Shown here: positions 1-16,177 of the stretch, piece by piece
How the letters are laid out: every line of letters begins with the position of its first letter
How positions within the stretch are numbered: position 1 is the stretch's first letter
NCBI RefSeq assembly: GCF_003334335.1
Contig: NZ_QOWQ01000003.1
DNA length: 64,000 bases
Source of the DNA: Escherichia coli
GTDB taxonomy: Bacteria; Pseudomonadota; Gammaproteobacteria; Enterobacterales; Enterobacteriaceae
Reading direction: 5' to 3' (one strand)
The notes under the pieces: generated by a model
What the model saw: only the letters and a program-made list of their open reading frames with translations
Told to the model about the DNA's origin: nothing
Database searches by the model: none
Translations under genes and position numbers: made by a program

Positions 1-235
1 ACGCGAGGCATCGTCTTAACGAGGCACCGAGGCGTCGCATTCTTCAGATGGTTCAACCCTTAAGTTAGCGCTTATGGGGTCAGGTCTCCCCGTTCCGCAA
101 GCTGCCGCGATTTTTCCCGCCACTGCTTCACGGCGATATCATCCAGGTAGGCGGGGGCTTTCGGTGGTCTTGCCATGCTTATTTTTCGTCAGATTATTTT
201 TCAAAAAATTCCCGTGCATAAAAATTTGGGGAGGC

Positions 236-285
236 GTTCGGTGCCCGGCGGGGTCGGGTTTGTCCTGAAAACGCCCCCCACCCCG
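236..285. promoter_or_regulatory. GC-rich imperfect inverted repeat, candidate cos/packaging site
   Basis: GGGGAGGCGT ... ACGCCCCCC arms around GCCCGGCGGGGTCGGGTTTG core, flanked by AT-rich DNA, immediately downstream of the HNH gene. Confidence 0.25.
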
Positions 286-298
286 TCATACAGCCTCA

Positions 299-481
299 TC
301 AGCGATTGCGGAAACATTCCATAACCTCGCGGTCACGGTCGGTTAATCGCTTCGCTGTGATGCGTTCTGCGCGTCCTGACGCTTTATCTTTATGCCCTGT
401 TTCCTGTGTCTTCCATGCGTCACGCTGCCTTATAAGTCCACGGATAAGGCGGTTTTGTTCCCGCTCATTCATCAGCGTCAT
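299..481 (-). CDS. Hypothetical small protein (about 60 aa) overlapping the HNH stop
   Basis: ATG at 481-479 overlaps the last HNH codons; C-terminal LTDRDREVMECF stretch looks HTH-like; no convincing RBS. Confidence 0.25.
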   Translation of the reverse strand: MTLMNEREQNRLIRGLIRQRDAWKTQETGHKDKASGRAERITAKRLTDRDREVMECFRNR

Positions 482-905
482 ACATCCAGTTATTGCGGTT
501 AGCGGCCCGTTCTTCCTCTTCACGAAATCCACCTGCGGCACGCTTGCTTTTTGTTGCCGGATCAAGCCACTTCGTTTTCTGGTTATGACACGCCTGGCAC
601 AATGGCTGATGGTTCCATTCGGGCCAGAAGAGAACATCATCACCGCCATTAATCGGGATAATGTGATCCACCACCACGGCGGGCGTATATATCCCCTTCT
701 CAAGGCATCGCACGCATAACGGGTTTTTACTCAGATACATGGCGCGGTATTTTTCCCACTGTCTGGAGTACCCACGCGCGCGGCGGTGTCCTCGTCTGGC
801 ATCCTCTGCACGCCATGCCGCCCGCCTGTGCTCCTCACACTTGCCGGACTTAACGCGCCTGTTACAGCCTGGTTCTGTACATCGTCTTAATGGTTGCCAC
901 GGCAT
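465..905 (-). CDS. HNH endonuclease, phage packaging-associated
   Basis: 146 aa with Cys-rich N-terminus and DHIIP...H...N...CH...CH HNH-type motif; start overlaps connector stop (ATGA). Confidence 0.85.
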   Translation of the reverse strand: MPWQPLRRCTEPGCNRRVKSGKCEEHRRAAWRAEDARRGHRRARGYSRQWEKYRAMYLSKNPLCVRCLEKGIYTPAVVVDHIIPINGGDDVLFWPEWNHQPLCQACHNQKTKWLDPATKSKRAAGGFREEEERAANRNNWMYDADE

Positions 906-1201
906 CAGTACACCCCCACATCACGGTAAGCCGTCCAGAGCGCGCCAATCGTCATGGGTACGCGCGTTTTTGCGTTATCCGCTACCAGCTGGCGATTCTC
1001 GTACAGGTGAGCGATAAACATCATGCAGCCAATCTTTATGGCTGGCGTGAACTCCAGCCCGTCATCAAAGCGCCTGCCTATATGTATCTGGCACGCCTCA
1101 AGCGATGCGGCAATGTATCCGCTGATTAACTGGTCTTCCTCGTCGCCATCGATGCGGCAATGGAGTTTCACTTCTTCCAGGGTGATAAGTTCTTCTGTCA
1201 T
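905..1201 (-). CDS. Head-tail connector protein, gp6-like
   Basis: 98 aa, N-terminal ITLEEVKLHCRIDGDEEDQLI motif typical of gp6-like connector proteins; translationally coupled to neighbours. Confidence 0.8.
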   Translation of the reverse strand: MTEELITLEEVKLHCRIDGDEEDQLISGYIAASLEACQIHIGRRFDDGLEFTPAIKIGCMMFIAHLYENRQLVADNAKTRVPMTIGALWTAYRDVGVY

Positions 1202-1536
1202 TTTTCCGCGCCCTCACGACAAAGAATTTCAAGGCGTGTCCTGGCGGCATCCGGCAGCGGTTGCCCGATGATATTCAGTACACGCCCCGCCAGCGGCCCC
1301 GTACTGACCTTTATCCGGCTGGTGGCGTTGATGTCCTTCCGGTACCGTATCCAGATCCTTACGGTACCAATCGCCAGCTCTGCACCCGATGAAATGGCCT
1401 CCTTGCTGCTGATCATGTTCACGCTTGCCCAGAGTGTGTGACCGTCCTCCCACGTTTCGAGTATTTCGCCGGTTATATCCCTGGTCTGTTTCAGGGTCTG
1501 AATCGTTACCCTGTCACGCAGTCGCCCTATGTTCAT
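1198..1536 (-). CDS. Head closure / head-tail joining protein
   Basis: About 113 aa from ATG at 1536 overlapping portal stop; RVTIQ ... IRYR pattern of head-tail joining family. Confidence 0.7.
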   Translation of the reverse strand: MNIGRLRDRVTIQTLKQTRDITGEILETWEDGHTLWASVNMISSKEAISSGAELAIGTVRIWIRYRKDINATSRIKVSTGPLAGRVLNIIGQPLPDAARTRLEILCREGAEK

Positions 1537-2744
1537 TCCGGTTTTTCTCCCTCGCTGATTTTTACTTCCTGTTTCCATGCCTGGCTGAACTCATCACCAC
1601 CATCACGCGGGGACAGCCCTTCACGTTCGCGGGCTTCGTTCGGGCACATAACGCCGGATTTGATGCCGCGTTCATAGGTGGCAAAGCGTTCGCCAGGTGT
1701 GGCCCGTAACAGGTCCGCGCTGTCAAACTCCACCTGATACCGGATACCAGGTACAGGCGAGGCCACCAGCAGGGCGTTTTTTATCTGCTGCTCAAAGTTC
1801 GCCAGCCACGGGCGCATTGTCATGGTGAGAAATGCGCGGCTTGCCTCGCTGAAATTGCTGTAGGTGCTGTTGCTGTATTCCTGCAGAAAAATCGGCGAGA
1901 CGTTGAACATTCGGGCGATGTCTTCAATGGTGAAGCGACGGGAGGCCAGCCATTCAGCATCCTGATTACTCATGCCCAGCTGCTGATAGCTCATACCCCC
2001 TTCAAGGATGGGCGTTTTTCCGGCGTTTCTGGCCCCTTTGTAGCGTTCCAGTGCGGCTAATGCCTGTTTGCCCTTCACGCCGTCCAGCCATTCGCCTGAC
2101 GTGATAACCCCTGCCGCCATCATGCCATCACGCATCACGCTCGCGCCGTGGCGTTGTTGGGCCAGCCCAAGCCCCAGCGATTCGCGGCAGATGGTTACAG
2201 GTGAGCGCCCCATAAAACCGTCATCCGTGGAGTAACGAAGGTGGAGAACCTCCCACGGTAAATAGTTGCGGGTGTTTCCGGTGTAGGCGTCAGTGATGCA
2301 GTAGCGCCAGTTGTGTTCGCCTGTCTGCTCCACGTTCACCGACTGCGGCGGGTAAGGATGTAAAGCCACCGGAAAACCATCACGCCCCCACTGAATCACC
2401 GCATAAGCATTACCGTTTAACAGGCAGTGGCGGATCATCATTCGCTTAAACTGGTAGGGAGTCTGCCACGCGTTCGGGCGCTCGTTGAGGATGTGATCGA
2501 CCGGATGAGAATCAAGCCACTCGCGGGCCTCCTTCCCCTTCTCATTGCGTACCAGGTACAGGTAACACGGCATGGTAGCCACCGCCTCAGAGATGACCGT
2601 CACGGCGTTCATGACGGCGGGCAGTGATTCCGCTGTCCCCGATGATACGTACTCACCCGCCCCCGTGTTCGATGTGCCAGCCAGCGCCATAAATTCATCA
2701 AGCGTCATGCTGCGCTGCTCTTTTTTTCTTCTGAAAAGCCACAT
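1533..2744 (-). CDS. Phage portal protein, HK97 family
   Basis: 403 aa with portal-family conserved core; sits between protease and head-closure genes. Confidence 0.9.
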   Translation of the reverse strand: MWLFRRKKEQRSMTLDEFMALAGTSNTGAGEYVSSGTAESLPAVMNAVTVISEAVATMPCYLYLVRNEKGKEAREWLDSHPVDHILNERPNAWQTPYQFKRMMIRHCLLNGNAYAVIQWGRDGFPVALHPYPPQSVNVEQTGEHNWRYCITDAYTGNTRNYLPWEVLHLRYSTDDGFMGRSPVTICRESLGLGLAQQRHGASVMRDGMMAAGVITSGEWLDGVKGKQALAALERYKGARNAGKTPILEGGMSYQQLGMSNQDAEWLASRRFTIEDIARMFNVSPIFLQEYSNSTYSNFSEASRAFLTMTMRPWLANFEQQIKNALLVASPVPGIRYQVEFDSADLLRATPGERFATYERGIKSGVMCPNEAREREGLSPRDGGDEFSQAWKQEVKISEGEKPE

Positions 2745-2745
2745 A

Positions 2746-3303
2746 TCACACCCCCGCTAAATCCACCCACCAGCGGCGATTATCCGCACGCGGCATTTTT
2801 TCGGGGTGCTGCTCATACAGGGAACGGCGGGCCAGCTCCACGCCGGAATCGGGGTAAGCCGGTACCGATGTAACGGTAATTTCGTACAGTTCCGCCACCA
2901 GCACGGTGCGCACGCATGGATCTGTTGTGGTATCCCATACATCCTTACGGGAGCGAAAGCCAAAGCTCATCCCCGAGATGTCCCCACGCTTAACCAGTTC
3001 GATAACGTCGCGCCCTGTACTGGTATCCGGTGGGGTCAGTTCAAAGCGTAACCCTGTTTCGTCCTCTTCCAGTTTCAGCGTGCCGGAACGGGTACGCCCC
3101 AGCAACATGCTGTGGTCATGCTCATACAGGCCGCGAACGTCATTACCCGCCGCAAGCCATTCAGTAAACGCTCCCCGCTGGAATTTTTCGTAAAACTCCC
3201 CCCATAGCAGCTCTGAAAGCTTATCCCAGCGAACAACGTAGCCTGTAAGCGTGTTGCTGGCGCTGGTGGTGATTTCCGATGACCGGATTTCCATACTCTT
3301 CAT
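2746..3303 (-). CDS. Prohead (head maturation) protease, HK97 family
   Basis: About 185 aa; ORF track gives 2746..3318 but ATG at 3303 has the better RBS (GGGTGA); HK97 protease-like sequence. Confidence 0.85.
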   Translation of the reverse strand: MKSMEIRSSEITTSASNTLTGYVVRWDKLSELLWGEFYEKFQRGAFTEWLAAGNDVRGLYEHDHSMLLGRTRSGTLKLEEDETGLRFELTPPDTSTGRDVIELVKRGDISGMSFGFRSRKDVWDTTTDPCVRTVLVAELYEITVTSVPAYPDSGVELARRSLYEQHPEKMPRADNRRWWVDLAGV

Positions 3304-3318
3304 AATTTTTTCACCCAT

Positions 3319-3347
3319 AAAACACTAAAGGGGCTTTTAAGCCCCTT
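3319..3347 (-). terminator. Intercistronic hairpin/attenuator after major capsid gene
   Basis: AAGGGGC-loop-GCCCCTT stem followed by U-rich tract on minus strand between capsid stop and protease start. Confidence 0.5.
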
Positions 3348-3357
3348 CTGTATGCTG

Positions 3358-4515
3358 TTAATCGTCGTCCTGTGGCAGTTCCAGAATCTTGATCGCGTTC
3401 GAATCCACCACGCCACCGCCTAAATATTTCTGCGTGAAAATTTTGATGAAGCCCGGCTCTGTGAGGTTGTCCGGTCTGGTGCGAACACCTGTTTCGTGAT
3501 CAACAATGTAGTAACCGCGTTTGAAGTCACCCAGGGCAATAACGTTATCAGGCATAAACTCCAGATATTCGACCGGAAGGCCCAGCAACGTATCAGGATC
3601 ACCCGCCTGTAAACGGTCACGCCAGATGTAATCACCGTTCGCGTTCTTCACCTTCTGGAGTTTTGCCGCCGTCGTGGAGTTAACCACCCAGACCGCGTTT
3701 TTGCGGTATTTTTTACGTAATGCAAATTTCAGGTCGATCAGCGGGTCCGCAGATGTCCACGCCAGAGATTCGGAAGGTTTAATTACCTGCAACGTACCAA
3801 AATCACGCTCTTTGTCGTTCTTCTCTGCACGGGGTACGGATAAAAAGCCTTTTGCTTTTTTGTCACCGTCGCCCACAACCAGATCGCTTTCTTCGGTTTC
3901 CGTGAAGGTGTCGCCAATCTCGCCCGTCAGCCATGAAAGGATGTCCACATCGGAAAAATCCACGATTTCCTGTGTGGTGCGCGGGTACGCATAGACCGGA
4001 TACAGCTTAATGCTCACCTCGTTAATCTGCGGGGTGCTGGTCTGTTCGCGTGTCTTACCCTCTTCACCGTGGTTAACGGTCGCACCGCCAGCGGAAACAA
4101 GCTGCTTAAACTCGTTGCTGCTGATTTTCTTCACGGTACAGATGCGGCGCATGGTGGATTCATCCGTCAGCATTCGCATGATTTCGGTGTTCAGTTCGGG
4201 GATAACGGTATAACCACCATCAGCGGGAACGCCTGTACTTAATGCGCGGGTTTCACCTGTCAGGATGTAGTTGCGGAGTTCTGCCGGGTCAGTGGTCTGG
4301 CTGCTTTTACCTGGCTTGCTGCGCTCTTCGTCTGCAATGGCTTCAAGGCGGGAAATGTCTTTATCGAGGGATTCAGCTTTAGCGCGTAATTCGTCAAATG
4401 TTGCGCCCTCAGCATCGTTAAGACTGCGGTTTTCTTTTTCCGCGTTCTCCAGCATGTCGCGCATCTGATTTTTAATGGCGGTTTTCTGCTGGCGTAATTC
4501 GATTATTCTCGGCAT
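3358..4515 (-). CDS. Major capsid protein, HK97 fold, with N-terminal coiled-coil delta domain
   Basis: 385 aa; charged coiled-coil N-terminus then HK97-type capsid body; adjacent to prohead protease. Confidence 0.9.
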   Translation of the reverse strand: MPRIIELRQQKTAIKNQMRDMLENAEKENRSLNDAEGATFDELRAKAESLDKDISRLEAIADEERSKPGKSSQTTDPAELRNYILTGETRALSTGVPADGGYTVIPELNTEIMRMLTDESTMRRICTVKKISSNEFKQLVSAGGATVNHGEEGKTREQTSTPQINEVSIKLYPVYAYPRTTQEIVDFSDVDILSWLTGEIGDTFTETEESDLVVGDGDKKAKGFLSVPRAEKNDKERDFGTLQVIKPSESLAWTSADPLIDLKFALRKKYRKNAVWVVNSTTAAKLQKVKNANGDYIWRDRLQAGDPDTLLGLPVEYLEFMPDNVIALGDFKRGYYIVDHETGVRTRPDNLTEPGFIKIFTQKYLGGGVVDSNAIKILELPQDDD

Positions 4516-4522
4516 AAAAAAA

Positions 4523-4552
4523 GTCCTGGGGTTAAGTAAGGAACTCCAGGAC
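4523..4552 (-). promoter_or_regulatory. Hairpin plus U-run immediately 5' of capsid start codon
   Basis: GTCCTGG ... CCAGGAC stem (7 bp, about 16 nt loop) followed by TTTTTTT then ATG; no canonical SD at normal spacing. Confidence 0.35.
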
Positions 4553-4729
4553 GCGGCAAAAACTCAACCGTTTTTCATAAGGAAATCAGCAATCGCACCG
4601 ATCGTTTTCCCGCCTGGTAATGAATATTGGCGAGAACATTAACAGGCGGAAAAGTGGCCCCAGCGTCCTGGCACCACGGGCGAGAATAATCATGATTCAG
4701 TTCGGGTAAAATATGCCGATCCTGTCAGT

Positions 4730-4756
4730 GAACAACGTGGAACAACCGCGAACAAA
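4730..4756. promoter_or_regulatory. Three GAACAAC direct repeats at 10-bp phasing upstream of head operon
   Basis: gAACAACgtg gAACAACcgc gAACAAAtaa on plus strand (GTTGTTC on the transcribed minus strand), about 215 bp upstream of capsid start. Confidence 0.45.
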
Positions 4757-4761
4757 TAATT

Positions 4762-4796
4762 TACAAAAAATGACAAAAAGCCGGATTGCTCCGGCT
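4762..4796 (-). terminator. Rho-independent terminator after small cargo gene
   Basis: GCCGGAgcaaTCCGGC hairpin followed by TTTTTGTCATTTTTTG on minus strand. Confidence 0.7.
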
Positions 4797-4806
4797 GTAT
4801 GCGTGC

Positions 4807-5031
4807 TCAGTCCCTGATCCCTTTCAGAAATTCTATCAATGCATCTATCTGTTCAGGATTTACCGCCAGCATTTCACCGGACAGAGCACATCTCACAAAA
4901 CCATGCTGATCCTTTTCAATCAGTGCGCCCGTCTCCAGGAATGCGCGGTAATCATTGATGCTCATCGTCTCCATGTTGTCAGCATGGTATTTATCACGCT
5001 GTTTTAATATCTCATCAAATTTCATCGGCAT
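4807..5031 (-). CDS. Hypothetical protein, 74 aa, terminator-bounded cargo (moron-like) gene
   Basis: ATG at 5031 with GAGGAA RBS; terminators on both sides; no recognisable family. Confidence 0.55.
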   Translation of the reverse strand: MPMKFDEILKQRDKYHADNMETMSINDYRAFLETGALIEKDQHGFVRCALSGEMLAVNPEQIDALIEFLKGIRD

Positions 5032-5123
5032 TGTTTTTTCCTCTGTTGTGTCTGTTTGTTTCAGATAGTAACTATGCCTGACCGTGACGAAAACCCGGTA
5101 ATGCGCCATACCGTTTCAACTGG

Positions 5124-5149
5124 TGCAAAAAAAGCCGGATTTCTCCGGC
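5124..5149 (-). terminator. Rho-independent terminator ending the early/replication operon
   Basis: GCCGGAgaaaTCCGGC hairpin followed by TTTTTTT on minus strand; near-identical to hairpin at 4780-4795. Confidence 0.7.
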
Positions 5150-5156
5150 TGTGTGA

Positions 5157-5429
5157 TTAGCTGTCCTGGTAATTTCGCCATATTTCATCACCAGCACCAT
5201 CCATACCCATTTCGGCATAAGTGCGATCGACCGCCTTTTTCAGGTCTCCGTAATTATCCGGCGGCTCCGGTGGCCTCTGTGCCTTCCTGGAACATTCCAG
5301 CCGTCGCATCGTAACCTGATGCCGTTCCTTGTCTGTCTCCACCAGCAGCATGACTTCACCCCATCGCGCCGACGCCCTCCGGTAAAAGCCTTTTGCCTCG
5401 AGTTCCTCCGCTATGCGGTCATGTACCAT
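5157..5429 (-). CDS. Hypothetical protein, 90 aa
   Basis: ATG at 5429 with strong RBS (GAGGGGGTGA), 10 nt after SSB stop; no recognisable family. Confidence 0.55.
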   Translation of the reverse strand: MVHDRIAEELEAKGFYRRASARWGEVMLLVETDKERHQVTMRRLECSRKAQRPPEPPDNYGDLKKAVDRTYAEMGMDGAGDEIWRNYQDS

Positions 5430-5439
5430 CGTCACCCCC

Positions 5440-5850
5440 TCAGAACGGAATATCATCACCGTAGGGGTCATCGTCTCCCGCTGGTGGCTGATTACCCTGT
5501 GTGCCTGTGGTTTTGCGTCTGTTCCCGCCAGGACGTGCCGCACGGGCACTGATTACGCTGTCTGCAATAACCTGATACCCCTGTCGTGTTTCCCCGTTCT
5601 GTCCGGTCCACTGGCTTACCTGCATCGTGCCGGATACGCTGGCAACATCGCCTTTTTGATGTTTAGCCAGGAAATCGGCCTGTTTGCCAAATGCGATAAC
5701 CGATAACCATAACGTCGCCTGTCCGTCATGTGCTTGGCTGCATGGCAACGATACCGCCATACGCGCCAGAGTCATCGGTGTGCCCTTGCTGCTCTGTTTT
5801 ACCAGCGGGTCGTCCACCAGGCGCCCGTAAGCTGCAATTTGTGCTGTCAT
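5440..5850 (-). CDS. ssb: Single-stranded DNA-binding protein
   Basis: 136 aa; OB-fold region aligns with E. coli SSB; Gly/Gln-rich linker and acidic C-terminal tip ending DDIPF. Confidence 0.85.
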   Translation of the reverse strand: MTAQIAAYGRLVDDPLVKQSSKGTPMTLARMAVSLPCSQAHDGQATLWLSVIAFGKQADFLAKHQKGDVASVSGTMQVSQWTGQNGETRQGYQVIADSVISARAARPGGNRRKTTGTQGNQPPAGDDDPYGDDIPF

Positions 5851-5859
5851 ATTGCCACC

Positions 5860-6165
5860 TCAGTGAAGCGATCCGGCGTTGTTCTTTTTCATCTCTTCCA
5901 TCATTTTTTCAGTGAGCATTACGCACTGAAAACCCATGTTTTTGATGTCTACGGGTTTCATGCCTTTGTCAGTGGATATCACAGGCAGAATATCCTGATA
6001 CACATCGCGGTCAGGGTAACTAAGCACACAAAGCGCCCATGATGCCACGGGTGAGGATCCTTCGTCTGTTTCAACCCACCAGCCTGGTGTAGCTGCGCTT
6101 ATTTGCTGAATCGTGATCCGTCCGTTGTGCTTGTAAAGTTTTTCACCAAATTTTGGTTCGCTCAT
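5860..6165 (-). CDS. Hypothetical protein, 101 aa
   Basis: Start overlaps upstream gene stop (ATGA); operon context; no recognisable family. Confidence 0.5.
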   Translation of the reverse strand: MSEPKFGEKLYKHNGRITIQQISAATPGWWVETDEGSSPVASWALCVLSYPDRDVYQDILPVISTDKGMKPVDIKNMGFQCVMLTEKMMEEMKKNNAGSLH

Positions 6166-6413
6166 GATTCCAACTCTCCGGTTTTAACGTTGATTGTTGT
6201 TACCTGTTCCGCTTCGGCAATCTCACGTTCTGTCAGCGTGGCAAAGTTTGCCGCTGCTGTGGTCATGAATGCGCTTATCAGGTCGGGATGTTCTTTCGCG
6301 TATCCTTCCCCCGCGTGGCGGTCTATCGTTCTGATTGCCACCTTTAAGGCGTGCTCTGTCATGTCTAACGCTTTATATTTTGGCTCTGTTCTGTCTCTGT
6401 GTTTTTGAGTCAT
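6162..6413 (-). CDS. Hypothetical protein, about 84 aa
   Basis: ORF track gives 6162..6545 but that N-terminal extension runs through the iteron array; ATG at 6413 has GAGGTG RBS. Confidence 0.45.
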   Translation of the reverse strand: MTQKHRDRTEPKYKALDMTEHALKVAIRTIDRHAGEGYAKEHPDLISAFMTTAAANFATLTEREIAEAEQVTTINVKTGELES

Positions 6414-6620
6414 TTGCCCACCTCTACCCACTTTTTTCGCCCACTTTTTACGTTTTCCCACTTCGTCCAACGTGGGAAATTTGGGATTTATATCATCTTG
6501 TTTCATAGGTATTTTTTTAGTGCCCACTTTTTGGGATATATACACGTGGGAAAGTGGGTAATTTTGTTAAAATTACGTTAAATCGCCCACCTTTCCCACT
6601 TTTAATGCCCACTTTTTACA
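6414..6620. repeat. Candidate replication origin: iteron array around an AT-rich spacer
   Basis: At least 10 copies of (G/T)CCCAC(T)n / GTGGGAAA in both orientations flanking an AT-rich segment (about 6478-6518), directly 3' of the replication protein gene. Confidence 0.6.
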
Positions 6621-8013
6621 GTGGTCCTACATCATCACCGTCAATGTAGATCACGTCGTCTTTTTCCAGTTTGGCTAACCATCGTTTAAGGTGTTTTGTG
6701 TCATACCCCAGCTTTTTCATATCGTCACGTAACAGCGGGATCGTGCACTTGTCGCCGTGCTGTGTGCGTGAACGTATGCACCCCCATAGCGCGGTATGGT
6801 TTTCCGTCTTGTTGCCTGCCTCCTCGATGCGCTCCAGTTCAACGGGAGGGCGCGGCTTATCCACCACCACCAGCGACGTGATTAACTCCCCGTCAGCGTC
6901 GGTAAAAAGCTCCACCACCCGCAAATCATAGGCAGCCTCTTTGAGTTCCTCCGCGTCCTTCATTTTGGTGCATGAGATAACCAGCGCTTCGCTTCCTGCG
7001 TCCTCCCTGCGTATCCGGTATTCAGCATCCAGCGAAGCACGAAATGCACTGGAACCGCGCGCGCCTTTCGTCTCATCCTTGCCGGAATGGTGAACCACCA
7101 GCACCGTGGCCCCTGTGCGCCGTTTAAGCTCGTCACACCCACGGATAAACGCCCCCATATCACGGGAATCATTTTCATCATTGCCACCAAAGCAACGCGC
7201 CAGAGTATCAAGAATAATCATGCGTACAGGTTTACCCGTTTCCCGCTCCACCTGACGGGCAGCGATAACCAGTTCATCAACATCAAGCGGGACAGCCGGA
7301 AAAACTGGACGGTTTACCAGATACAGATTTTTCACCTGCTCACCGTGCACAACCTCCCAGGCTTTTACACGACGCGGAACGCCGATACCGCCTTCACCAA
7401 CCACATAGAGAACAGCGCCATGCGCCACCCTGCGGCCTCCCCACTGGCGGCCCGTGGAAACGTGACACGCCCACGAACCCGCAAGGAATGATTTATAGGA
7501 ACCGCTTGCCCCGTATATGCTGCATAGCGACGATGCCGGAATAATCCCCTTTACCACGTAATCTAATTGCGTGTCGTATCCGGCAGATCCAACGCTCATC
7601 GGTAGCGTGGTTTTTCGCTGGTGGTGTTCTTCCCCTGGCTTTTTCCCCCGCTCCCGTTCCAGATATTCGCGCCAGTTCTCCCGCTTCTGGCTGTGTATCC
7701 CTTCGGGGTAATAATTCGCATCAGTTACGCCCGCCGCCGCCAGCTTGTGCGCAATGGCATTAATATTTGATGGCCTGATGTGGCCTGCCTTGTACAGCCG
7801 GACACAATAGCGCCCCTCGTCGATGATTCTCAGGTCTGCCAGTTCATCCAGTTGATCATCAGCCAGCACAATGGGAGGCACATTATCGCCAGCCAGTCGC
7901 CCGTCCTGTTCCTGCCACTGTTTCGCATGTGCCCACGCATCACTACCCGCAAAAATGATGACTTCGGTCATCTTGTCGTAAGGCTGTTTTTTTAAGTTCG
8001 GTGCGCTTTTCAT
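6616..8013 (-). CDS. Satellite replication protein, RecA/DnaB-like P-loop ATPase with N-terminal extension
   Basis: 465 aa; Walker A GASGSYKS and ILDTLARCFGG...VHHSGK helicase-like motifs; followed by the iteron array. Confidence 0.85.
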   Translation of the reverse strand: MKSAPNLKKQPYDKMTEVIIFAGSDAWAHAKQWQEQDGRLAGDNVPPIVLADDQLDELADLRIIDEGRYCVRLYKAGHIRPSNINAIAHKLAAAGVTDANYYPEGIHSQKRENWREYLERERGKKPGEEHHQRKTTLPMSVGSAGYDTQLDYVVKGIIPASSLCSIYGASGSYKSFLAGSWACHVSTGRQWGGRRVAHGAVLYVVGEGGIGVPRRVKAWEVVHGEQVKNLYLVNRPVFPAVPLDVDELVIAARQVERETGKPVRMIILDTLARCFGGNDENDSRDMGAFIRGCDELKRRTGATVLVVHHSGKDETKGARGSSAFRASLDAEYRIRREDAGSEALVISCTKMKDAEELKEAAYDLRVVELFTDADGELITSLVVVDKPRPPVELERIEEAGNKTENHTALWGCIRSRTQHGDKCTIPLLRDDMKKLGYDTKHLKRWLAKLEKDDVIYIDGDDVGPL

Positions 8014-8309
8014 TTCTTGCCCCTGAATCCGTTAATCATGTTTTTCATCTTCTGAATATTGGCGCGTGCTTTCTCCCTGCTGGTGGGCACGTTACGCGGT
8101 ACGGCCTGCACCAGAGAAAAATCACGCCGGAACTGATAAACAGGCATCACGCAATCATATTCGTAACTTTCACGACGGTAGGTTACGCGCCGTTCCTCCA
8201 CGCCCTTAATCATTACCGTGCCGCCGTACTGGTCGCGGTAAATATCACCGCGCGTAAATTTAGGGTGAGTGTTGCCACTGGCAGTTAAGCCAGAATATTT
8301 AAGTTTCAT
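8010..8309 (-). CDS. Hypothetical protein, 99 aa
   Basis: ATG with GGAG RBS; stop overlaps rep start. Confidence 0.5.
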   Translation of the reverse strand: MKLKYSGLTASGNTHPKFTRGDIYRDQYGGTVMIKGVEERRVTYRRESYEYDCVMPVYQFRRDFSLVQAVPRNVPTSREKARANIQKMKNMINGFRGKK

Positions 8310-8314
8310 TATTT

Positions 8315-8548
8315 TTATTCTCCGGTGTGCTGTTCGTTATATCTGTCGTGCAATGTCTCTATTTCTTGTAGTTCCATTATTACAGGCTCAAGAAGCGTTA
8401 TTAATGCCGTGACAATTCTTGATTTTTGTTTGTCGCGTTCATTGTCGCCAAGTGTTTCAAGCCATATGCGCAATATTTCCAGCATGTTTTCACTGTGAGA
8501 AAGTGCAAGAAATACGCGTTCTGTTGTTTCGTGGTAAATATCACGCAT
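8315..8548 (-). CDS. Hypothetical protein, 77 aa
   Basis: ATG at 8548 with GAGGA RBS; operon context. Confidence 0.5.
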   Translation of the reverse strand: MRDIYHETTERVFLALSHSENMLEILRIWLETLGDNERDKQKSRIVTALITLLEPVIMELQEIETLHDRYNEQHTGE

Positions 8549-8620
8549 GGCTTACATCCTCAGGAAATTTTCTTCTGTAACGCGCCTCTGCCACATATTC
8601 CGCATAATCGGCGGCGATAT

Positions 8621-8773
8621 TCAGTACATCAAGCCCGTTGATTTATATTCTCTCGTGGAAAGTAAGAAAAAAGCCGCTCTAATAAGTTCTGGCATTGACG
8701 AAAGCGCATCAGCCGCATCATCAGGAACGCCGGAAAATTCTTGTTTCAGGGAATTAAAACGATCATCACGCAT
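8621..8773 (-). CDS. Hypothetical small protein, about 50 aa
   Basis: ATG at 8773 preceded by GGGGGG RBS; overlaps upstream gene stop by 8 nt. Confidence 0.3.
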   Translation of the reverse strand: MRDDRFNSLKQEFSGVPDDAADALSSMPELIRAAFFLLSTREYKSTGLMY

Positions 8774-8996
8774 AACCCCCCCCATTTTCACAATCAGCAA
8801 CAAGAATATTTTTAGCGTCATTCAGCGACCGCGTTGCGGTGTATCGGATACATTCCAGGGCGAATAGTGTGTATTCTTCCCTTTCTTCCCTTTCTTCCTT
8901 TTGTGCAAGCTCTGCTGTGCATTCAATATCAATAAGCGCGTGCATCAGCGTAGTGAGTGCGGCGGCGGCTGCGTCCGGTGTGGTTTTATTGCACAT
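8766..8996 (-). CDS. Hypothetical protein, about 76 aa, acidic Glu-rich segment
   Basis: ATG at 8996 overlapping the stop of the upstream gene. Confidence 0.4.
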   Translation of the reverse strand: MCNKTTPDAAAAALTTLMHALIDIECTAELAQKEEREEREEYTLFALECIRYTATRSLNDAKNILVADCENGGGYA

Positions 8997-9216
8997 GTAC
9001 CCCTCCGCATTTTTTTTCGTTAGAAATAAGCGTTCTTCTTTCCTGTTCATCGATCAGGAATACGCAGACCTCACCGCTAAGGCGTTTAAGTAAGCCGATG
9101 ATTGCCCCTGATTCGCTGTCGGTCATCATGCCTGGGTAATCCTCTGCCAGTGCGCAAATAACTTCGATTTGGTGGGCGCGTTCTGCTGCCTGTTGTAGTG
9201 TGATTTCCTGGCTCAT
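8986..9216 (-). CDS. Hypothetical protein, 76 aa
   Basis: ATG at 9216 overlapping stop of upstream ORF (ATGA). Confidence 0.5.
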   Translation of the reverse strand: MSQEITLQQAAERAHQIEVICALAEDYPGMMTDSESGAIIGLLKRLSGEVCVFLIDEQERRTLISNEKKCGGVHVQ

Positions 9217-9413
9217 AAGCCTACCCCCTGACGAATACGGGCAGCGAATACCATCACGCAGCCAGCCGGGGATTGCAGGCGTGCTTCCTGTTCGCTGGTG
9301 GCCTCAATGGTAATCACGCGCGGTTGTGCAGTGCTCAGGGCGATAAAACGCCAAATGTATTTATTCAGGTTGTGCGAGTCCCGCCCTTGCGGGTGTGTGG
9401 TATGATTTCTCAT
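9213..9413 (-). CDS. Hypothetical protein, 66 aa, first gene of leftward operon
   Basis: ATG at 9413 with GAGGTAG RBS; this is the only plausible part of the spurious 340-aa ORF 9213..10235. Confidence 0.45.
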   Translation of the reverse strand: MRNHTTHPQGRDSHNLNKYIWRFIALSTAQPRVITIEATSEQEARLQSPAGCVMVFAARIRQGVGL

Positions 9414-9508
9414 AGCTACCTCGATACTCTCGTTATCGTTGGTGGTTAGAAGCCCGGTTAGTGTTAGCGCACTGCCGGGTTTCGTCGTTTCTGCACCTTG
9501 CGCCAACA

Positions 9509-9566
9509 AGGTGTTGAACACCAATTTAAACCCAGGTGTTAAACACGTCAAGTGTTGAACACTTAT
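9509..9566. promoter_or_regulatory. Three palindromic operators in divergent promoter region
   Basis: GGTGTTGAACACC, GGTGTTAAACAC and AGTGTTGAACACT; last one contains TTGAAC -35 candidate with CATACT -10 about 17 bp downstream for the RHH gene. Confidence 0.5.
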
Positions 9567-9612
9567 TTTTTTTCCTGCATACTGCATTTGTTTTTTATGA
9601 GGGGTACACCAC

Positions 9613-9792
9613 ATGGCGACAAAAGCAGTAAACGCAAAATCACAAACCGTTGCGGCAAGGGTTCCGCATGAAGTTATGAACAATGTTGAGGCGGTAAAAA
9701 TGCCTGGCGAAAGTACGGGGCAATTTGTTACTGCAGCATTAAAACGAGAAGTTGAATATCGCCAGCGGCGCAAGGCCAAAGAACCAGAGTAA
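9613..9792 (+). CDS. Ribbon-helix-helix DNA-binding protein, 59 aa, candidate satellite repressor
   Basis: Not in ORF track (below 60 aa); ATG with GAGGGG RBS; AARVPHEV beta-strand then helices, typical Arc/CopG-like pattern. Confidence 0.55.
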   Translation: MATKAVNAKSQTVAARVPHEVMNNVEAVKMPGESTGQFVTAALKREVEYRQRRKAKEPE

Positions 9793-9834
9793 TCACCATC
9801 AGCGCCGTGGTGTAAGGTATTACGGCGCATTGCT

Positions 9835-10023
9835 ATGCAGGACAACACAATGACCGATAAAGAATTGACCAAAACATTATCACCGGCACGGAAAAGACGG
9901 CGCAGAAAGATAGAGCATGAATCAGAAAGATTCGCGCCATGTGCTTTTGCCCTTGAGCAATTCCTTAAAGAGTACAGGGAAAAGCGCTCATTGCAGGTAT
10001 GGCAACGAACTGAACCAGACTGA
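9835..10023 (+). CDS. Hypothetical small basic protein, 62 aa
   Basis: Lies between the RHH gene and a plus-strand terminator in the same transcription unit; weak RBS. Confidence 0.35.
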   Translation: MQDNTMTDKELTKTLSPARKRRRRKIEHESERFAPCAFALEQFLKEYREKRSLQVWQRTEPD

Positions 10024-10116
10024 TAGCATTGCCCACCAGCCTGATAGCGACTATCATTGCCGTTCTTATGTTTGGGATCACACACACAAACGGCGCAGCG
10101 GGTTATCTGTTCAGAA

Positions 10117-10148
10117 AGGCGGCTCCATTTCGGGGCCGCTTTTTTTAT
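10117..10148 (+). terminator. Rho-independent terminator of the RHH operon
   Basis: GCGGC...GCCGC hairpin followed by TTTTTTTT. Confidence 0.65.
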
Positions 10149-10292
10149 ACCTGAAAAACCCCAATTTTGTTGTTTTTCAGTTTCACCAGGGCGAACGAAT
10201 CCCCGCCCACGTTCTGGCGTATATTCAATCTTCATGGTTATAGCTCTGTGTTCAGATGATTGATGTGTGGCGGCTGCGTGCCGCCAGCGTGA

Positions 10293-10481
10293 TTAATGAA
10301 CTGCCTTGCAGCTATCCTTCCAGGCCAGAACCTCGGATAAAGACCAGCCAACGGAACGACCGCCAAGTTTACGACGTGATGGGAATTGTCCGGCCTTTTC
10401 CAGGCGGTAGCGACACGTACGGCTAAGGCCGGTTAGTTTTTCGCATTCTTTTTCACGTATAAACCGATCAGTGCTTAACAC
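10293..10481 (-). CDS. alpA: AlpA-family transcriptional regulator/excisionase
   Basis: GTG start at 10481 with strong RBS (AAGGGGGG); ORF track extends to a TTG at 10562; EKLTGLSRTCRYRLEKAGQFP HTH typical of AlpA. Confidence 0.75.
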   Translation of the reverse strand: MLSTDRFIREKECEKLTGLSRTCRYRLEKAGQFPSRRKLGGRSVGWSLSEVLAWKDSCKAVH

Positions 10482-10631
10482 TATTGCCCCCCTTTCGTTT
10501 CTTAAAGAGTCATCAGGTGTCTTATTGTGTCGTATTGTTCCCGCTAGAGTGATGAATGGCAAATATTGAGGATGTATTATTTACAGAAAATGAAACAGTA
10601 AGAATAAAATCTTTTAAATTCATGTTAATAC

Positions 10632-10666
10632 AAAGGCATAAAATATTGTTTCATGCCTTTTTTTTC
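10632..10666 (+). terminator. Hairpin plus T8 terminator in int-alpA spacer
   Basis: GGCAT...ATGCC stem followed by TTTTTTTT on plus strand. Confidence 0.45.
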
Positions 10667-10754
10667 GCTCTTTAAAGAGTGATTCGCTAGTGTATAAAAA
10701 ACCAGTGACACATTAAAAATCAGCCACTTATAAATCTGTATGCTTTTTCGCCTC

Positions 10755-10810
10755 TTGTTCGTGGTTGTTCCACATTGTTGCTCATTGTTGCACGTTGTAT
10801 CTGTTCGCAT
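10755..10810. promoter_or_regulatory. Five to six TTGTT(C/G) direct repeats at 10-bp phasing
   Basis: cTTGTTCgtgg TTGTTCcaca TTGTTGctca TTGTTGcacg TTGTATctg TTCGC between int stop and alpA; same motif as at 4730-4756. Confidence 0.45.
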
Positions 10811-10846
10811 ATCCAGTATGCGCATACTGAAAAAACACGAAAAAAA

Positions 10847-12064
10847 TTATTTTCTTCTGGCTACGGGTAGCGTGGTTACGTTTTCATGTGTTCCCGCCAG
10901 TATCCCTAACCGCTCCGTCCACATATCCAGCGCATTGCGTTTAGCATCCAGATAACGGGAATGATTATAAACTCGCTGCATTCCTGGCATCTGGTGGCCT
11001 GTAAGCTGCTCCACGACATGCGGATCAACGCCTAAATCGTTCAGCATGGTTGTAAAGGTGCGCCGGATGTCATGCAGTGACCAGTGAGGATGATTAAGCC
11101 TCCTGTGCGCTAATCTTCCATACTGCGATACGCTGGCCTCCTGTTTCACTTCCCCCAGCAATAAGCCCGTGTGCCTGTTCTGCTCCACCAGCTGCGTGAC
11201 GAACGGCAGGATCGCTTCCGGTATGGGCCGGAATATTGCGACCTTCGTTTTGCTGTGCTCCTTCGGAACGGTCCATAGCATTTCCGTAAAATCCCACTCC
11301 CCGATCTCCGATAACCTCAGTTCTACCGTTCTGGCTCCGAAGACAATCAGGAGGCGGATTAACGCGACGTAGTAAGGGGAGAATATTTTTTTGTCCAGTG
11401 CCTGCAATAATTCGCCAAGTTCTTTGTTACTTAAGACACGTTCGCTTATATCCGGTTTTTTCCCAACGTCCGCCACGTTCAGATCGTCCAGAACGTTGCT
11501 GATTGCATAGCGCCGCCTACGGCAGAACTTAAGCGCCTGTTTGCACGCCTGTAGCACGAATCCGGCAGTAACAGGCGTTCGCTTTGCCACCTGGTCAAAA
11601 CAGGCCAGCCAGTGCCGTAGCTCGCATTTATCCAGCGGCATAGCACCAATCTGCTGTATTACGTGATTATTAAGTCGCCTTTTCAGGGCGATATAATCCA
11701 CGCGGTTTTCCTTTACGTAATACTCAAGCCAGTAGGTGAGCGCATCGCCAACCGTTACGGGCTTTAACGCTTCCTGTACGGTGTAATTCATCTCATGACG
11801 TGGATTTTTCCCCTCAGCCAGCCATGTGCGACACTGTGCGGCTTTTTCCCTGGCTGCTTTCAGGCTCAGATCAGGATAACTTCCCAGCTTAATGCGTTCG
11901 GGTCGTGTCTCCCTTCCCGTTCCGGCCCTGTATGTGAAATACCAGGTCAATTTCCCTGATGTTAAATATTTCACGCTCAGGTTTCCGCCATCACTATAAA
12001 ACGTGTTTTTCTCCGCTGGCTTACCATGAAGTTTCCTTAGCAAGGTATCGCTCAGTTTGTTCAT
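10847..12064 (-). CDS. int: Tyrosine integrase, P4-like
   Basis: About 405 aa from ATG at 12064 (ORF track starts at a GTG at 12076); P4-type N-terminal arm-binding region and C-terminal catalytic region with HDIRRTF and trailing Tyr; next to insertion junction. Confidence 0.9.
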   Translation of the reverse strand: MNKLSDTLLRKLHGKPAEKNTFYSDGGNLSVKYLTSGKLTWYFTYRAGTGRETRPERIKLGSYPDLSLKAAREKAAQCRTWLAEGKNPRHEMNYTVQEALKPVTVGDALTYWLEYYVKENRVDYIALKRRLNNHVIQQIGAMPLDKCELRHWLACFDQVAKRTPVTAGFVLQACKQALKFCRRRRYAISNVLDDLNVADVGKKPDISERVLSNKELGELLQALDKKIFSPYYVALIRLLIVFGARTVELRLSEIGEWDFTEMLWTVPKEHSKTKVAIFRPIPEAILPFVTQLVEQNRHTGLLLGEVKQEASVSQYGRLAHRRLNHPHWSLHDIRRTFTTMLNDLGVDPHVVEQLTGHQMPGMQRVYNHSRYLDAKRNALDMWTERLGILAGTHENVTTLPVARRK

Positions 12065-12100
12065 TGCTCTGCTCACGTTTTACCCCCTCTTTACGAAAAA

Positions 12101-12123
12101 GTGACTACACCAGTGACTACACC
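12101..12123. repeat. Tandem direct repeat (A)GTGACTACACC x2 between int and insertion junction
   Basis: Two adjacent copies seen directly in sequence; candidate integrase arm-type site or promoter element. Confidence 0.35.
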
Positions 12124-12252
12124 GATCGTTGCACAAAGGGCTACAACGTGAAACAAGCTGGAACAAGGAAAATCACAAATCTGTTGATAATCAAAAACAT
12201 AATGCACAGCCTGAAACATTATGAAACAGCAAAAAACACTAAATGATAAAAT

Positions 12253-13158
12253 GCTGTTATTCTTAACCCGCTGGTGCAACACATGGTCCGCTGGCGTGTG
12301 CCGCGTGTACTGGCGGTGTCGATTTTGATGACCATCATCGTGATGGCGATGGTGTTGCTATTAGCTTATCTGGGTTCCGCGCTCAACGAGTTGACGCGGA
12401 CGTTACCGCAATATCGCAACTCTATTATGACGCCGCTGCAAGCGCTTGAAGCGTTGTTGCAACGCGTAGGGATTGACGTCTCAGTTGACCAGCTGGCGCA
12501 TTATATTGATCCGAACGCGGCGATGACGTTGCTCACCAACTTATTGACGCAGTTATCTAATGCCATGTCATCAATATTTTTATTGCTGCTGACGGTGCTG
12601 TTTATGCTGCTCGAAGTGCCACAATTGCCCGGAAAATTTCAGCAAATGATGGCGCGTCCGGTTGAAGGGATGGCGGCGATTCAACGTGCGATTGACAGTG
12701 TTTCTCATTATCTGGTGCTGAAAACAGCCATCAGCATCATCACCGGCCTGGTCGCCTGGGCGATGCTCGCCGCACTCGATGTTCGCTTCGCTTTTGTCTG
12801 GGGATTGCTGGCCTTTGCGCTTAATTACATCCCGAATATTGGTTCAGTCCTCGCGGCAATCCCCCCTATCGCTCAGGTACTGGTGTTTAATGGCTTCTAC
12901 GAAGCGTTGCTGGTGCTGGCGGGATATCTGCTGATTAATCTGGTCTTCGGCAATATTCTGGAGCCGCGTATCATGGGGCGTGGGCTGGGGCTTTCCACAT
13001 TGGTGGTATTTTTGTCGTTGATTTTTTGGGGATGGTTGTTAGGACCGGTGGGTATGCTGCTTTCCGTGCCGTTGACAATTATTGTCAAAATTGCGCTTGA
13101 ACAAACAGCGGGAGGTCAAAGCATCGCCGTTCTGTTAAGCGATCTCAATAAAGAGTGA
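12253..13158 (+). pseudogene. tqsA: tqsA (AI-2 exporter) 3' fragment, 5' end displaced by the satellite
   Basis: Protein matches TqsA from about residue 50 onward; in-frame TAA immediately upstream at the junction; only GTG/ATG internal starts remain. Confidence 0.8.
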
Positions 13159-13179
13159 CGGCCTCAGCAGAGGCCGTCA
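13157..13179. terminator. Bidirectional hairpin between tqsA and pntB
   Basis: GACGGCCTCagcagAGGCCGTC. Confidence 0.45.
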
Positions 13180-13182
13180 GGG

Positions 13183-14574
<1,392 letters not shown>

Positions 14575-14581
14575 TTACCCC

Positions 14582-16177
<1,596 letters not shown>

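Follow-up and report, generated by a model that had tools for sequence, protein, structure and literature searches.

A short SSB gene in the replication module of an Escherichia coli capsid-forming satellite

Background

[quoted passage not shown] What might a satellite gain, then, by carrying a second ssb gene? The question is raised by a 64-kb window of E. coli DNA (the whole stretch analysed here), in which a 136-residue SSB is encoded by what appears to be a capsid-forming PICI (cf-PICI).

That satellites of this kind encode an SSB is already known: RefSeq/PGAP names WP_000126669.1 'single-stranded DNA-binding protein', and PMC10111431, a study of helper-embedded PICIs, lists SSB, treating 'Primase, SSB and DUF5906' as a PICI Replication category that colocalises with mapped origins. 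SSB goes unmentioned in the cf-PICI papers (10.1101/2022.09.08.507074, 10.1101/2025.02.11.637232), whose mutant series are restricted to packaging genes, and in the SatelliteFinder paper; we found no experimental work on any PICI SSB in the literature. The value of the present analysis is modest and lies in the context of the gene. The ssb gene is fixed in a rep-origin-small ORF-ssb layout shared by otherwise different E. coli satellites; roughly one complete E. coli genome in three carries it, and it is conserved while Rep and iterons are swapped; and it belongs to a short-linker SSB subfamily with no close homolog among 50,697 phage records.

Results and discussion

An intact reading frame under purifying selection

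The features of the locus are collected in Table 1. The ssb product terminates in ...AGDDDPYGDDIPF* (final residues also given as GDDDPYGDDIPF in the ORF listing of the window) and is identical to RefSeq WP_000126669.1 of strain JB2. Immediately 5' of the ATG lies TGAGGTGGCAAT; here the TGA that ends the upstream ORF overlaps the Shine-Dalgarno-like sequence, an arrangement consistent with translational coupling.

Table 1. Features of the satellite ssb locus, in window coordinates
Feature	Position	Strand	Remarks
Capsid module of the cf-PICI	465..4515	minus	Major capsid, HK97 protease, portal, head closure, head-tail connector, HNH endonuclease
Intrinsic-terminator-like hairpin	5133..5150	minus	AGCCGGAGAAATCCGGCT then T7; repeat D2; directly 3' of perC
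perC-family regulator gene	5157..5429	minus	10 nt 3' of ssb stop; last gene of the operon
ssb CDS	5440..5850	minus	136 aa + stop; ATG 5850-5848, TGA 5442-5440
Acidic C-terminal end, SSB-Ct-like tip	5443..5475	minus	D126-F136 (DDDPYGDDIPF); from sequence, homologs and AF2
Basic motif	5512..5544	minus	R103-K113 (RAARPGGNRRK); immediately C-terminal to OB fold
OB-fold SSB domain	5554..5838	minus	Residues 5-99; Pfam PF00436
Ribosome-binding context of ssb	5851..5862	minus	Upstream ORF TGA overlaps Shine-Dalgarno-like GAGGTGG, 4 nt from ATG
orf101	5860..6165	minus	101-aa ORF upstream of ssb; phrog_27268
orf83	6162..6413	minus	83 aa; phrog_1231
Putative replication origin	6427..6615		7 AARGTGGG copies, both orientations, around AT-rich core; repeat families D1, D3, D5, I3
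repA, RepA-family helicase/initiator	6616..8013	minus	465 aa; AAA_25 residues 146-314; PGAP 'helicase RepA family protein'
AlpA-like gene	10293..10562	minus	phrog_2790, E 8e-18
Satellite tyrosine integrase	10847..12076	minus	tqsA-proximal end of element

Across nine E. coli alleles, the reading frame is intact in every case (9/9), with start, stop and position conserved. The dN/dS ratio ranges from 0.03 to 0.26 in the OB domain and from 0.18 to 0.62 in the tail, so that both parts of the protein are under purifying selection. Two plus-strand ORFs overlapping the gene (5413..5706 and 5728..6042) were dismissed, the purifying selection being in the ssb frame. These observations bear directly on the possibility that the gene is a prophage or plasmid relic that has lost its function and hitch-hikes with the satellite. 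Decay of this kind would be in keeping with a host that has its own essential SSB and with a window satellite that is damaged elsewhere (an IS421 end at terS), but a dN/dS well below 1 in domain and tail, an ORF intact in all nine alleles at a conserved position, and a family present in 1784 of 5426 genomes make it exceedingly improbable.

The carrier element

Judged by its genes, the carrier of ssb is an EcCIEDL933-like cf-PICI inserted in tqsA. The preliminary description had called the SSB satellite-encoded, and it was right to do so: ssb lies between the integrase/AlpA/RepA module and the capsid/HNH module of an element inserted in tqsA, and neither positions 1-12076 of the window nor L001, the corresponding locus of strain JB2 (99.5% identical), contains any tail or lysis gene. 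Small ORFs, one of them with a DUF4222 domain, lie between the AlpA-like gene and repA. The gene names of the capsid module are those of the PGAP annotation of L001, where the element measures about 15.2 kb, sits in tqsA between pntB and mdtJ, and ends with TerS and TerL. In published work, cf-PICIs are characterized by the absence of tail and lysis genes, a size of about 10-18 kb and chromosomal integration (10.1101/2025.02.11.637232).

The same architecture recurs in an O157:H7 strain, where the insertion lies between phoQ and roxA and the SSB differs by one residue; gene order and size of this element are those of the published prototype EcCIEDL933 (10.1101/2022.09.08.507074). For EcCIEDL933, helper-phage induction and tail donation have been shown experimentally (10.1101/2022.09.08.507074).

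Both terS and terL are intact in L001. Of terS, no more than the ~35 initial codons (76..179) fall inside the window; the remainder of terS and the whole of terL lie outside it. Window bases 1-75 are the terminal part of a copy of IS421 (IS4 family), which abuts terS at position 76. Since an IS421 copy abuts terS and packaging-module mutants of EcCIEDL933 lost transfer (10.1101/2022.09.08.507074), the window copy of the satellite is probably packaging-defective.

OB-fold domain and predicted DNA contacts

Profile and structure comparisons assign the protein to the SSB family. Pfam SSB (PF00436) matches residues 5-99 with an E-value of 8.7e-16 (58.3 bits), and the entire protein is covered by the PHROG family phrog_44, 'single strand DNA binding protein' (E 8e-38). 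Each of the 15 NCBIfam matches is to an SSB model; TIGR00621 misses its curated cut-off marginally (53.4 against 53.95 bits). Comparison with PDB sequences returned 23 distinct solved SSB sequences, the best being 1Z9F. An AF2 model, built from an alignment of 57 diverse homologs, has a mean pLDDT of 86.7 and exceeds 90 over residues 1-100, which are confidently modelled as an OB barrel with one helix (strands 3-11, 16-19, 25-36, 44-54, 69-82 and 88-100; helix 55-62). When this model was compared with the PDB using Foldseek, the top 50 hits were all bacterial SSBs with probability 1.00 and target-normalised TM scores of 0.65-0.83. Neither Pfam nor AF2 revealed an extra domain beside the OB fold. 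The protein is very probably a true SSB. The preliminary description, which had reported a short SSB of 136 residues with a DDIPF end at 5440..5850, agrees with the ORF listing and the sequence in coordinates, length and C-terminus, and is borne out by Pfam, PHROG, AF2, Foldseek and the conservation of the tip.

Sequence identity with E. coli SSB (EcSSB) is 26% over 125 residues (BLASTP). Three of the four aromatic residues that stack on ssDNA are kept: W54, F60 and W88 of EcSSB correspond to W48, F54 and W81 of the satellite protein, which are conserved in 92%, 98% and 66% of the subfamily alignment, respectively. The fourth, W40, aligns with C37 at a variable position, and H55 of EcSSB aligns with L49. 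The conservation of the stacking aromatics argues that ssDNA binding itself is selected, beyond the tip alone.

Thermus and Deinococcus SSBs (2FXQ, 2CWA, 1SE8) come second and third after 1Z9F among PDB sequence matches, and the alignment with the Thermus sequence reaches the C-terminal tip. In these dimeric proteins each chain carries two OB folds, whereas the satellite SSB, with one OB fold, would need four chains for an equal assembly. We modelled a tandem AF2 construct, OB-(GGGGS)6-OB, in which the satellite OB domain is present twice, with a matching concatenated alignment. The resulting model (pTM 0.74) superposes over both domains on the Thermus/Deinococcus two-OB chains with a target-normalised TM of 0.55-0.60 and an rmsd of about 6 A. 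This superposition is suggestive at most, and would be compatible with canonical SSB dimer packing.

A short basic linker and a canonical tip

Beyond the OB fold, the tail of the satellite SSB is modelled as disordered from about residue 101, pLDDT falling to 57-69, and to about 57-64 over residues 111-136. It contains the basic motif R103-K113, an instance of the subfamily-wide pattern SAR(T/A)xRPGGxR(R/K)K, in which R106 is found in 90% and P107 in 84% of 60 diverse representatives. The acidic tip is equally recognizable among relatives: DPYGDDIPF is the terminus of 64 among 120 close homologs, most of the others having near variants of it, such as DPYGDNIPF in 24 of them, and distant homologs have the consensus FDDxIPF. 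Alleles of the gene differ by a 13-residue linker insertion (giving forms of 140-153 aa) and by tips such as DNIPF, DDIPL and DEDQF.

EcSSB ends in MDFDDDIPF, and this SSB-Ct recruits host replication and repair proteins. By analogy, the satellite tail may recruit the same host proteins, its last five residues being identical to those of EcSSB. The two proteins belong to the same Pfam family and share the OB fold and the D-D-I-P-F-COOH end (EcSSB: P0AGE0, 178 aa; PDB 1EQQ, 1EYG), but the satellite SSB is 42 residues shorter and scores 24.8 bits against 260 bits with the enterobacterial SSB model NF006533. Linker and tip together span about 35 aa in the satellite protein and about 65 aa in EcSSB. 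The satellite linker proper is about 25-30 aa long and basic, whereas that of EcSSB is about 55 aa long and rich in Gly, Gln and Pro; the conserved basic post-OB motif is absent from EcSSB. With such a short basic linker, cooperativity and partner access may differ from those of EcSSB.

The replication module

The putative origin begins straight after the repA stop codon, in a gap of ~200 bp (about 6615-6414). The word AARGTGGG matches seven times in the 64-kb window, where 3.8 matches are expected at random, and all seven lie within the putative origin. The ssb gene starts 565 bp downstream of this iteron cluster, in the same orientation as repA. In the 465-aa RepA protein, AAA_25 is the sole Pfam domain and no primase domain is recognizable.

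The first gene past the origin, orf83, has no Pfam or NCBIfam match. Its homologs (81-83 aa) occupy the same place in five of seven distinct E. coli satellite types; one is absent from L005, and in L009 the likeness is limited to the first 18 aa. The next gene, orf101, is an optional insert that several related satellites lack, and was rejected as a conserved ssb partner for this reason. The genes orf83, orf101, ssb and perC form a tightly packed operon, and the first strong predicted terminator lies 3' of perC; this hairpin is the probable end of the ssb operon. One small ORF follows, and then a second copy of the hairpin. A scan of positions 4500-8400 yielded no convincing minus-strand sigma-70 promoter, and no ncRNA was found in positions 1-14000 with Rfam at the gathering threshold; C4/isrK-type ncRNAs are mentioned for PICIs in PMC10111431.

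Iterons change while ssb is conserved

Gaps equivalent to the window origin are iteron-rich in related satellites, which supports the origin assignment at 6427..6615. The iteron word varies with the Rep allele, and the ssb located downstream is homologous throughout. The words are AAAGTGGG at the window locus, AGTGGGGA in L006, GGTGAACA in L007, L009 and L010, GGTAGAGG in L008, AGGTAGAC in L004, TAGGGATA in L005 and AACCCGT in L011. Among the E. coli loci, ssb alleles with 57-100% protein identity accompany six different iteron sequences. The initiators found with ssb are of at least three unrelated types: RepA helicase, 'DNA primase family' and P4-family primase. Because the iterons change with the Rep allele and ssb is conserved, origin specificity should belong to the Rep-iteron pair and not to the SSB, which looks like a generic, sequence-independent accessory.

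We may still ask whether the SSB steers the host replisome to the satellite origin by contacting Rep or origin DNA. Its gene is co-oriented with repA at a short distance from the iterons, and local co-expression could favour action in cis. However, SSBs bind ssDNA without sequence specificity, the satellite protein has no extra domain, and the ssb alleles coexist with this variety of initiators and iterons; steering of this kind is decidedly unlikely. The preliminary description had suggested that a mobile-element SSB can redirect host machinery to the element's origin. As a targeted mechanism this is unsupported, iterons following the Rep allele and ssb remaining conserved.

Distribution of the ssb family

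Of 5426 complete E. coli genomes, 1784 carry the family, in as many as six copies each, and 2321 of its 2323 E. coli matches are chromosomal. The few 'plasmid' matches include records of 10-23 kb, which may themselves be satellites.

Eight E. coli loci representing seven satellite types, and one further enterobacterial-type contig, share a single layout: rep/primase, then the iteron gap, one or more small ORFs, ssb and, usually, perC. The position of ssb is constant in cf-PICIs, be the initiator a RepA helicase (L001, L006) or of the 'DNA primase family' (L007, L008). It is kept in classical PICIs devoid of capsid genes (L005, L009; in one of the two, ProQ/FinO separates ssb from perC) and in elements located inside prophage late genes (L004, L010). 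Farther afield, a metagenomic contig carries a homolog of 52% identity, located between the gene for an 842-aa (primase-sized) protein and perC; a DNA ligase gene is adjacent, as it is at the ligB site of L005. Homologs with 34-46% identity occur in islands of the types int/HTH_17/SSB/Toprim/AAA_25 and int/DnaB-AAA_25/SSB/capsid.

One distant homolog directly precedes a gene for an ERF single-strand-annealing recombinase. This neighbour could point to a role in recombination or packaging, in which the SSB would aid strand annealing, or the formation or protection of concatemers destined for HNH/terminase packaging; RecO, RecQ and RecJ pathways are cited among SSB-Ct partners (PMC7913777). Yet the window satellite has no recombinase gene, perC and a terminator separate ssb from the packaging module, and ssb is also found in classical PICIs that have no packaging genes. 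We consider such a role very unlikely.

An exhaustive search of representative sequences returned 284 clusters at E <= 1e-10. They delineate a subfamily of 115-175-aa SSBs in which the basic motif follows the OB fold and precedes a short linker and the tip. No close phage homolog was found by tblastn against the 50,697 phage records: the best match has 33% identity. Recent capture of ssb from a helper phage was discarded, nothing in these records exceeding that value.

This element-specific lineage invites another reading, in which the SSB competes for the interaction hub of the host protein. By presenting many DDIPF tips, or by assembling with host SSB into mixed tetramers, it would titrate or re-route ExoI, RecQ, RecJ, PriA and chi, and thereby interfere with the helper phage or shield satellite DNA from host nucleases or SSB-sensing defence. 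It would account for a tip that is canonical although the OB domain shares no more than 26% identity with that of EcSSB, and for an unusually short linker with a conserved basic motif that EcSSB lacks; furthermore, interaction with defence pathways has been reported for SSB-like phage proteins whose tip reads FDDDIPF (10.64898/2026.04.29.721553). On the other hand, nothing in the locus ties ssb to interference genes, the gene belonging to a replication module beside the origin in every context examined, and the conserved stacking aromatics indicate selection for DNA binding and not for the tip alone. Competition for SSB partners is, in our view, unlikely.

A proposed role in satellite replication

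Support of satellite replication is the main role that we find reasonably probable for this protein. Following helper induction and excision, the RepA-family helicase would recognize the AARGTGGG iterons beside repA and open the AT-rich core. SSB, made at this stage from the operon just downstream of the origin (orf83, orf101, ssb, perC), would coat satellite ssDNA at the opened origin and at the forks during amplification. Its DDIPF tip would offer host SSB-binding proteins the same docking peptide as host SSB. Among the partners of E. coli SSB are the chi subunit of Pol III, the primase DnaG, and PriA. As RepA has no recognizable primase domain, priming may depend on host DnaG, and coupling through the tip would matter most at this step. 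This rationale cannot extend to all satellites, as members of the same ssb family are also found with Rep proteins annotated as primases.

Two further benefits may be proposed. Satellite SSB could enlarge the pool of SSB at a time when helper and satellite DNA are both being replicated, and it could lessen the dependence of replication on a particular host. Both fit a generic gene, and they are relevant to the reported cross-genus spread of cf-PICIs. The gene is probably dispensable, since two thirds of complete E. coli genomes do not have the family and an essential SSB is supplied by the host.

We may also hypothesize that SSBs of the PICI lineage form a satellite- or island-specific clade, specialized beyond the function of a spare SSB, an idea that we hold to be distinctly improbable. 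If it were true, the basic motif and short linker could alter the display of the tip and favour capture of host primase, clamp loader or PriA on satellite DNA; alternatively, SSB partners could be withheld from the helper phage. A specialized SSB would then contribute to helper interference or to the host independence across genera that is reported for cf-PICIs.

Comparison with SSBs of other mobile elements

Among SSBs of PICIs, cf-PICIs and helper-embedded PICIs (WP_000126669.1 and relatives), the window protein is simply one more member and differs in nothing material. F-plasmid-type Ssb is likewise an extra SSB borne by a mobile element. Plasmid SSBs end in an acidic tip resembling that of the host protein and are able to substitute for it in ssb mutants. 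Assignment of the satellite protein to the conjugative-plasmid SSBs (NF010292 / PRK13732) was rejected: its score with this model is 22.4 bits, the cut-off being 265, and its context is chromosomal and satellite-borne. Plasmid SSBs are full-length proteins of about 175-180 aa, whereas the satellite SSB has 136 aa and is encoded in a replication module. Plasmid ssb genes are located in the leading region, and their products act on incoming ssDNA after conjugation (PMC9849209). The substrates on entry also differ: plasmid SSBs serve incoming ssDNA, whereas the satellite enters cells as dsDNA in a capsid.

Probable modular exchange around a conserved ssb gene

The iteron word of the putative origin varies with the Rep allele among related satellites, and the adjoining ssb remains homologous, as seen at the equivalent gaps of the related loci L004 to L011. 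Seven distinct iteron words were found in total, six of them from E. coli loci. That the word changes with Rep beside a homologous ssb points to a modular exchange of Rep/origin cassettes.

When the ssb gene (5440-5850) is compared with that of the related satellite locus L007 (6001-6411), the OB-coding part shows 21 synonymous and 3 non-synonymous differences (dS 0.37), but there is no difference in the tail-coding part or in the perC protein encoded downstream. Such mosaic divergence implies a recombination breakpoint within ssb.

Features of the window and of a related element
Feature	Position	Strand	Remark
Iteron-rich putative origin	6427-6615		Directly after repA; equivalent gaps in L004-L011
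83-aa ORF, phrog_1231	6162-6413	-	C-terminal half strongly conserved
SSB basic motif RAARPGGNRRK	5512-5544	-	Residues 103-113, immediately past OB fold
Non-satellite repeat/IS end	1-75; junction 75/76		Multi-copy repeat beside IS421 transposase gene elsewhere
Two terminator-like hairpins	4775-4801; 5129-5155	-	93% identical to each other
340-aa mechanical ORF	9213-10235	-	Counterpart region annotated by PGAP in near-identical locus
L004 PICI (NZ_CP041304.1)	2279-15955		Inside major capsid gene of lambdoid prophage

Basic motif and tip variants of the satellite SSB

The basic motif is the counterpart of a subfamily-wide SAR(T/A)xRPGGxR(R/K)K, which is lacking from canonical EcSSB. It is unusual for a basic patch to lie about 15 residues away from the acidic tip. 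Some ssb alleles, those of L004 (9001-9450; ...WGDDIPL) and L005 (9001-9462; ...PPFDDEDQF), carry non-canonical tips together with a 13-aa linker insertion. If the SSB tip is functional, partner binding by variants of the L004/L005 type may be altered.

A conserved ORF past the putative origin

In five of the seven distinct E. coli satellite types examined, the first gene past the origin is a phrog_1231 homolog; among these seven, it is absent from L005, and in L009 only the first 18 aa are common. The conserved C-terminal half reads ...GEGYAKxHPELISAFMTTAAANFATLTEREIAEAEQVTTINVKTGE. Searches of Pfam and NCBIfam with the 83-aa ORF gave no match; it may be an unrecognised replication accessory.

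Element boundaries and related elements

The repeat that opens the window is found in 2144 genomes, in up to 22 copies and including plasmids, and elsewhere sits just past an IS421 (IS4-like) transposase gene. As the terS gene of the satellite meets this IS end about 35 codons in, the cf-PICI copy is probably packaging-defective; the remainders of the IS and of terS, as well as terL, lie outside the window.

The L004 PICI encodes int, a primase, ssb and a HEPN/DUF262 pair as well as capsid and decoration genes of its own; its place within the prophage is the helper-embedded arrangement that PMC10111431 describes for PICIs. Enterobacter and Klebsiella also have small, non-mobilizable 'plasmids' that encode homologs of the SSB (for example, NZ_CP066105.1, 15,459 bp; OW969629.1, 10,592 bp; NZ_CP033626.1, 22,859 bp). 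As their sizes fit satellites, these records may represent PICIs in an excised, circular form that were assembled as plasmids.

Hairpins and a doubtful ORF

The 340-aa ORF is probably not a real gene: at this region of the near-identical locus, PGAP annotates an Icd-like pseudogene overlapped by an opposite-strand YlcI/YnfO gene. On the minus strand, the two hairpins read AGCCGGAG(A/C)AATCCGGCT and then run into a stretch of T; between them lies a small cassette that holds a 74-aa ORF (phrog_1957).
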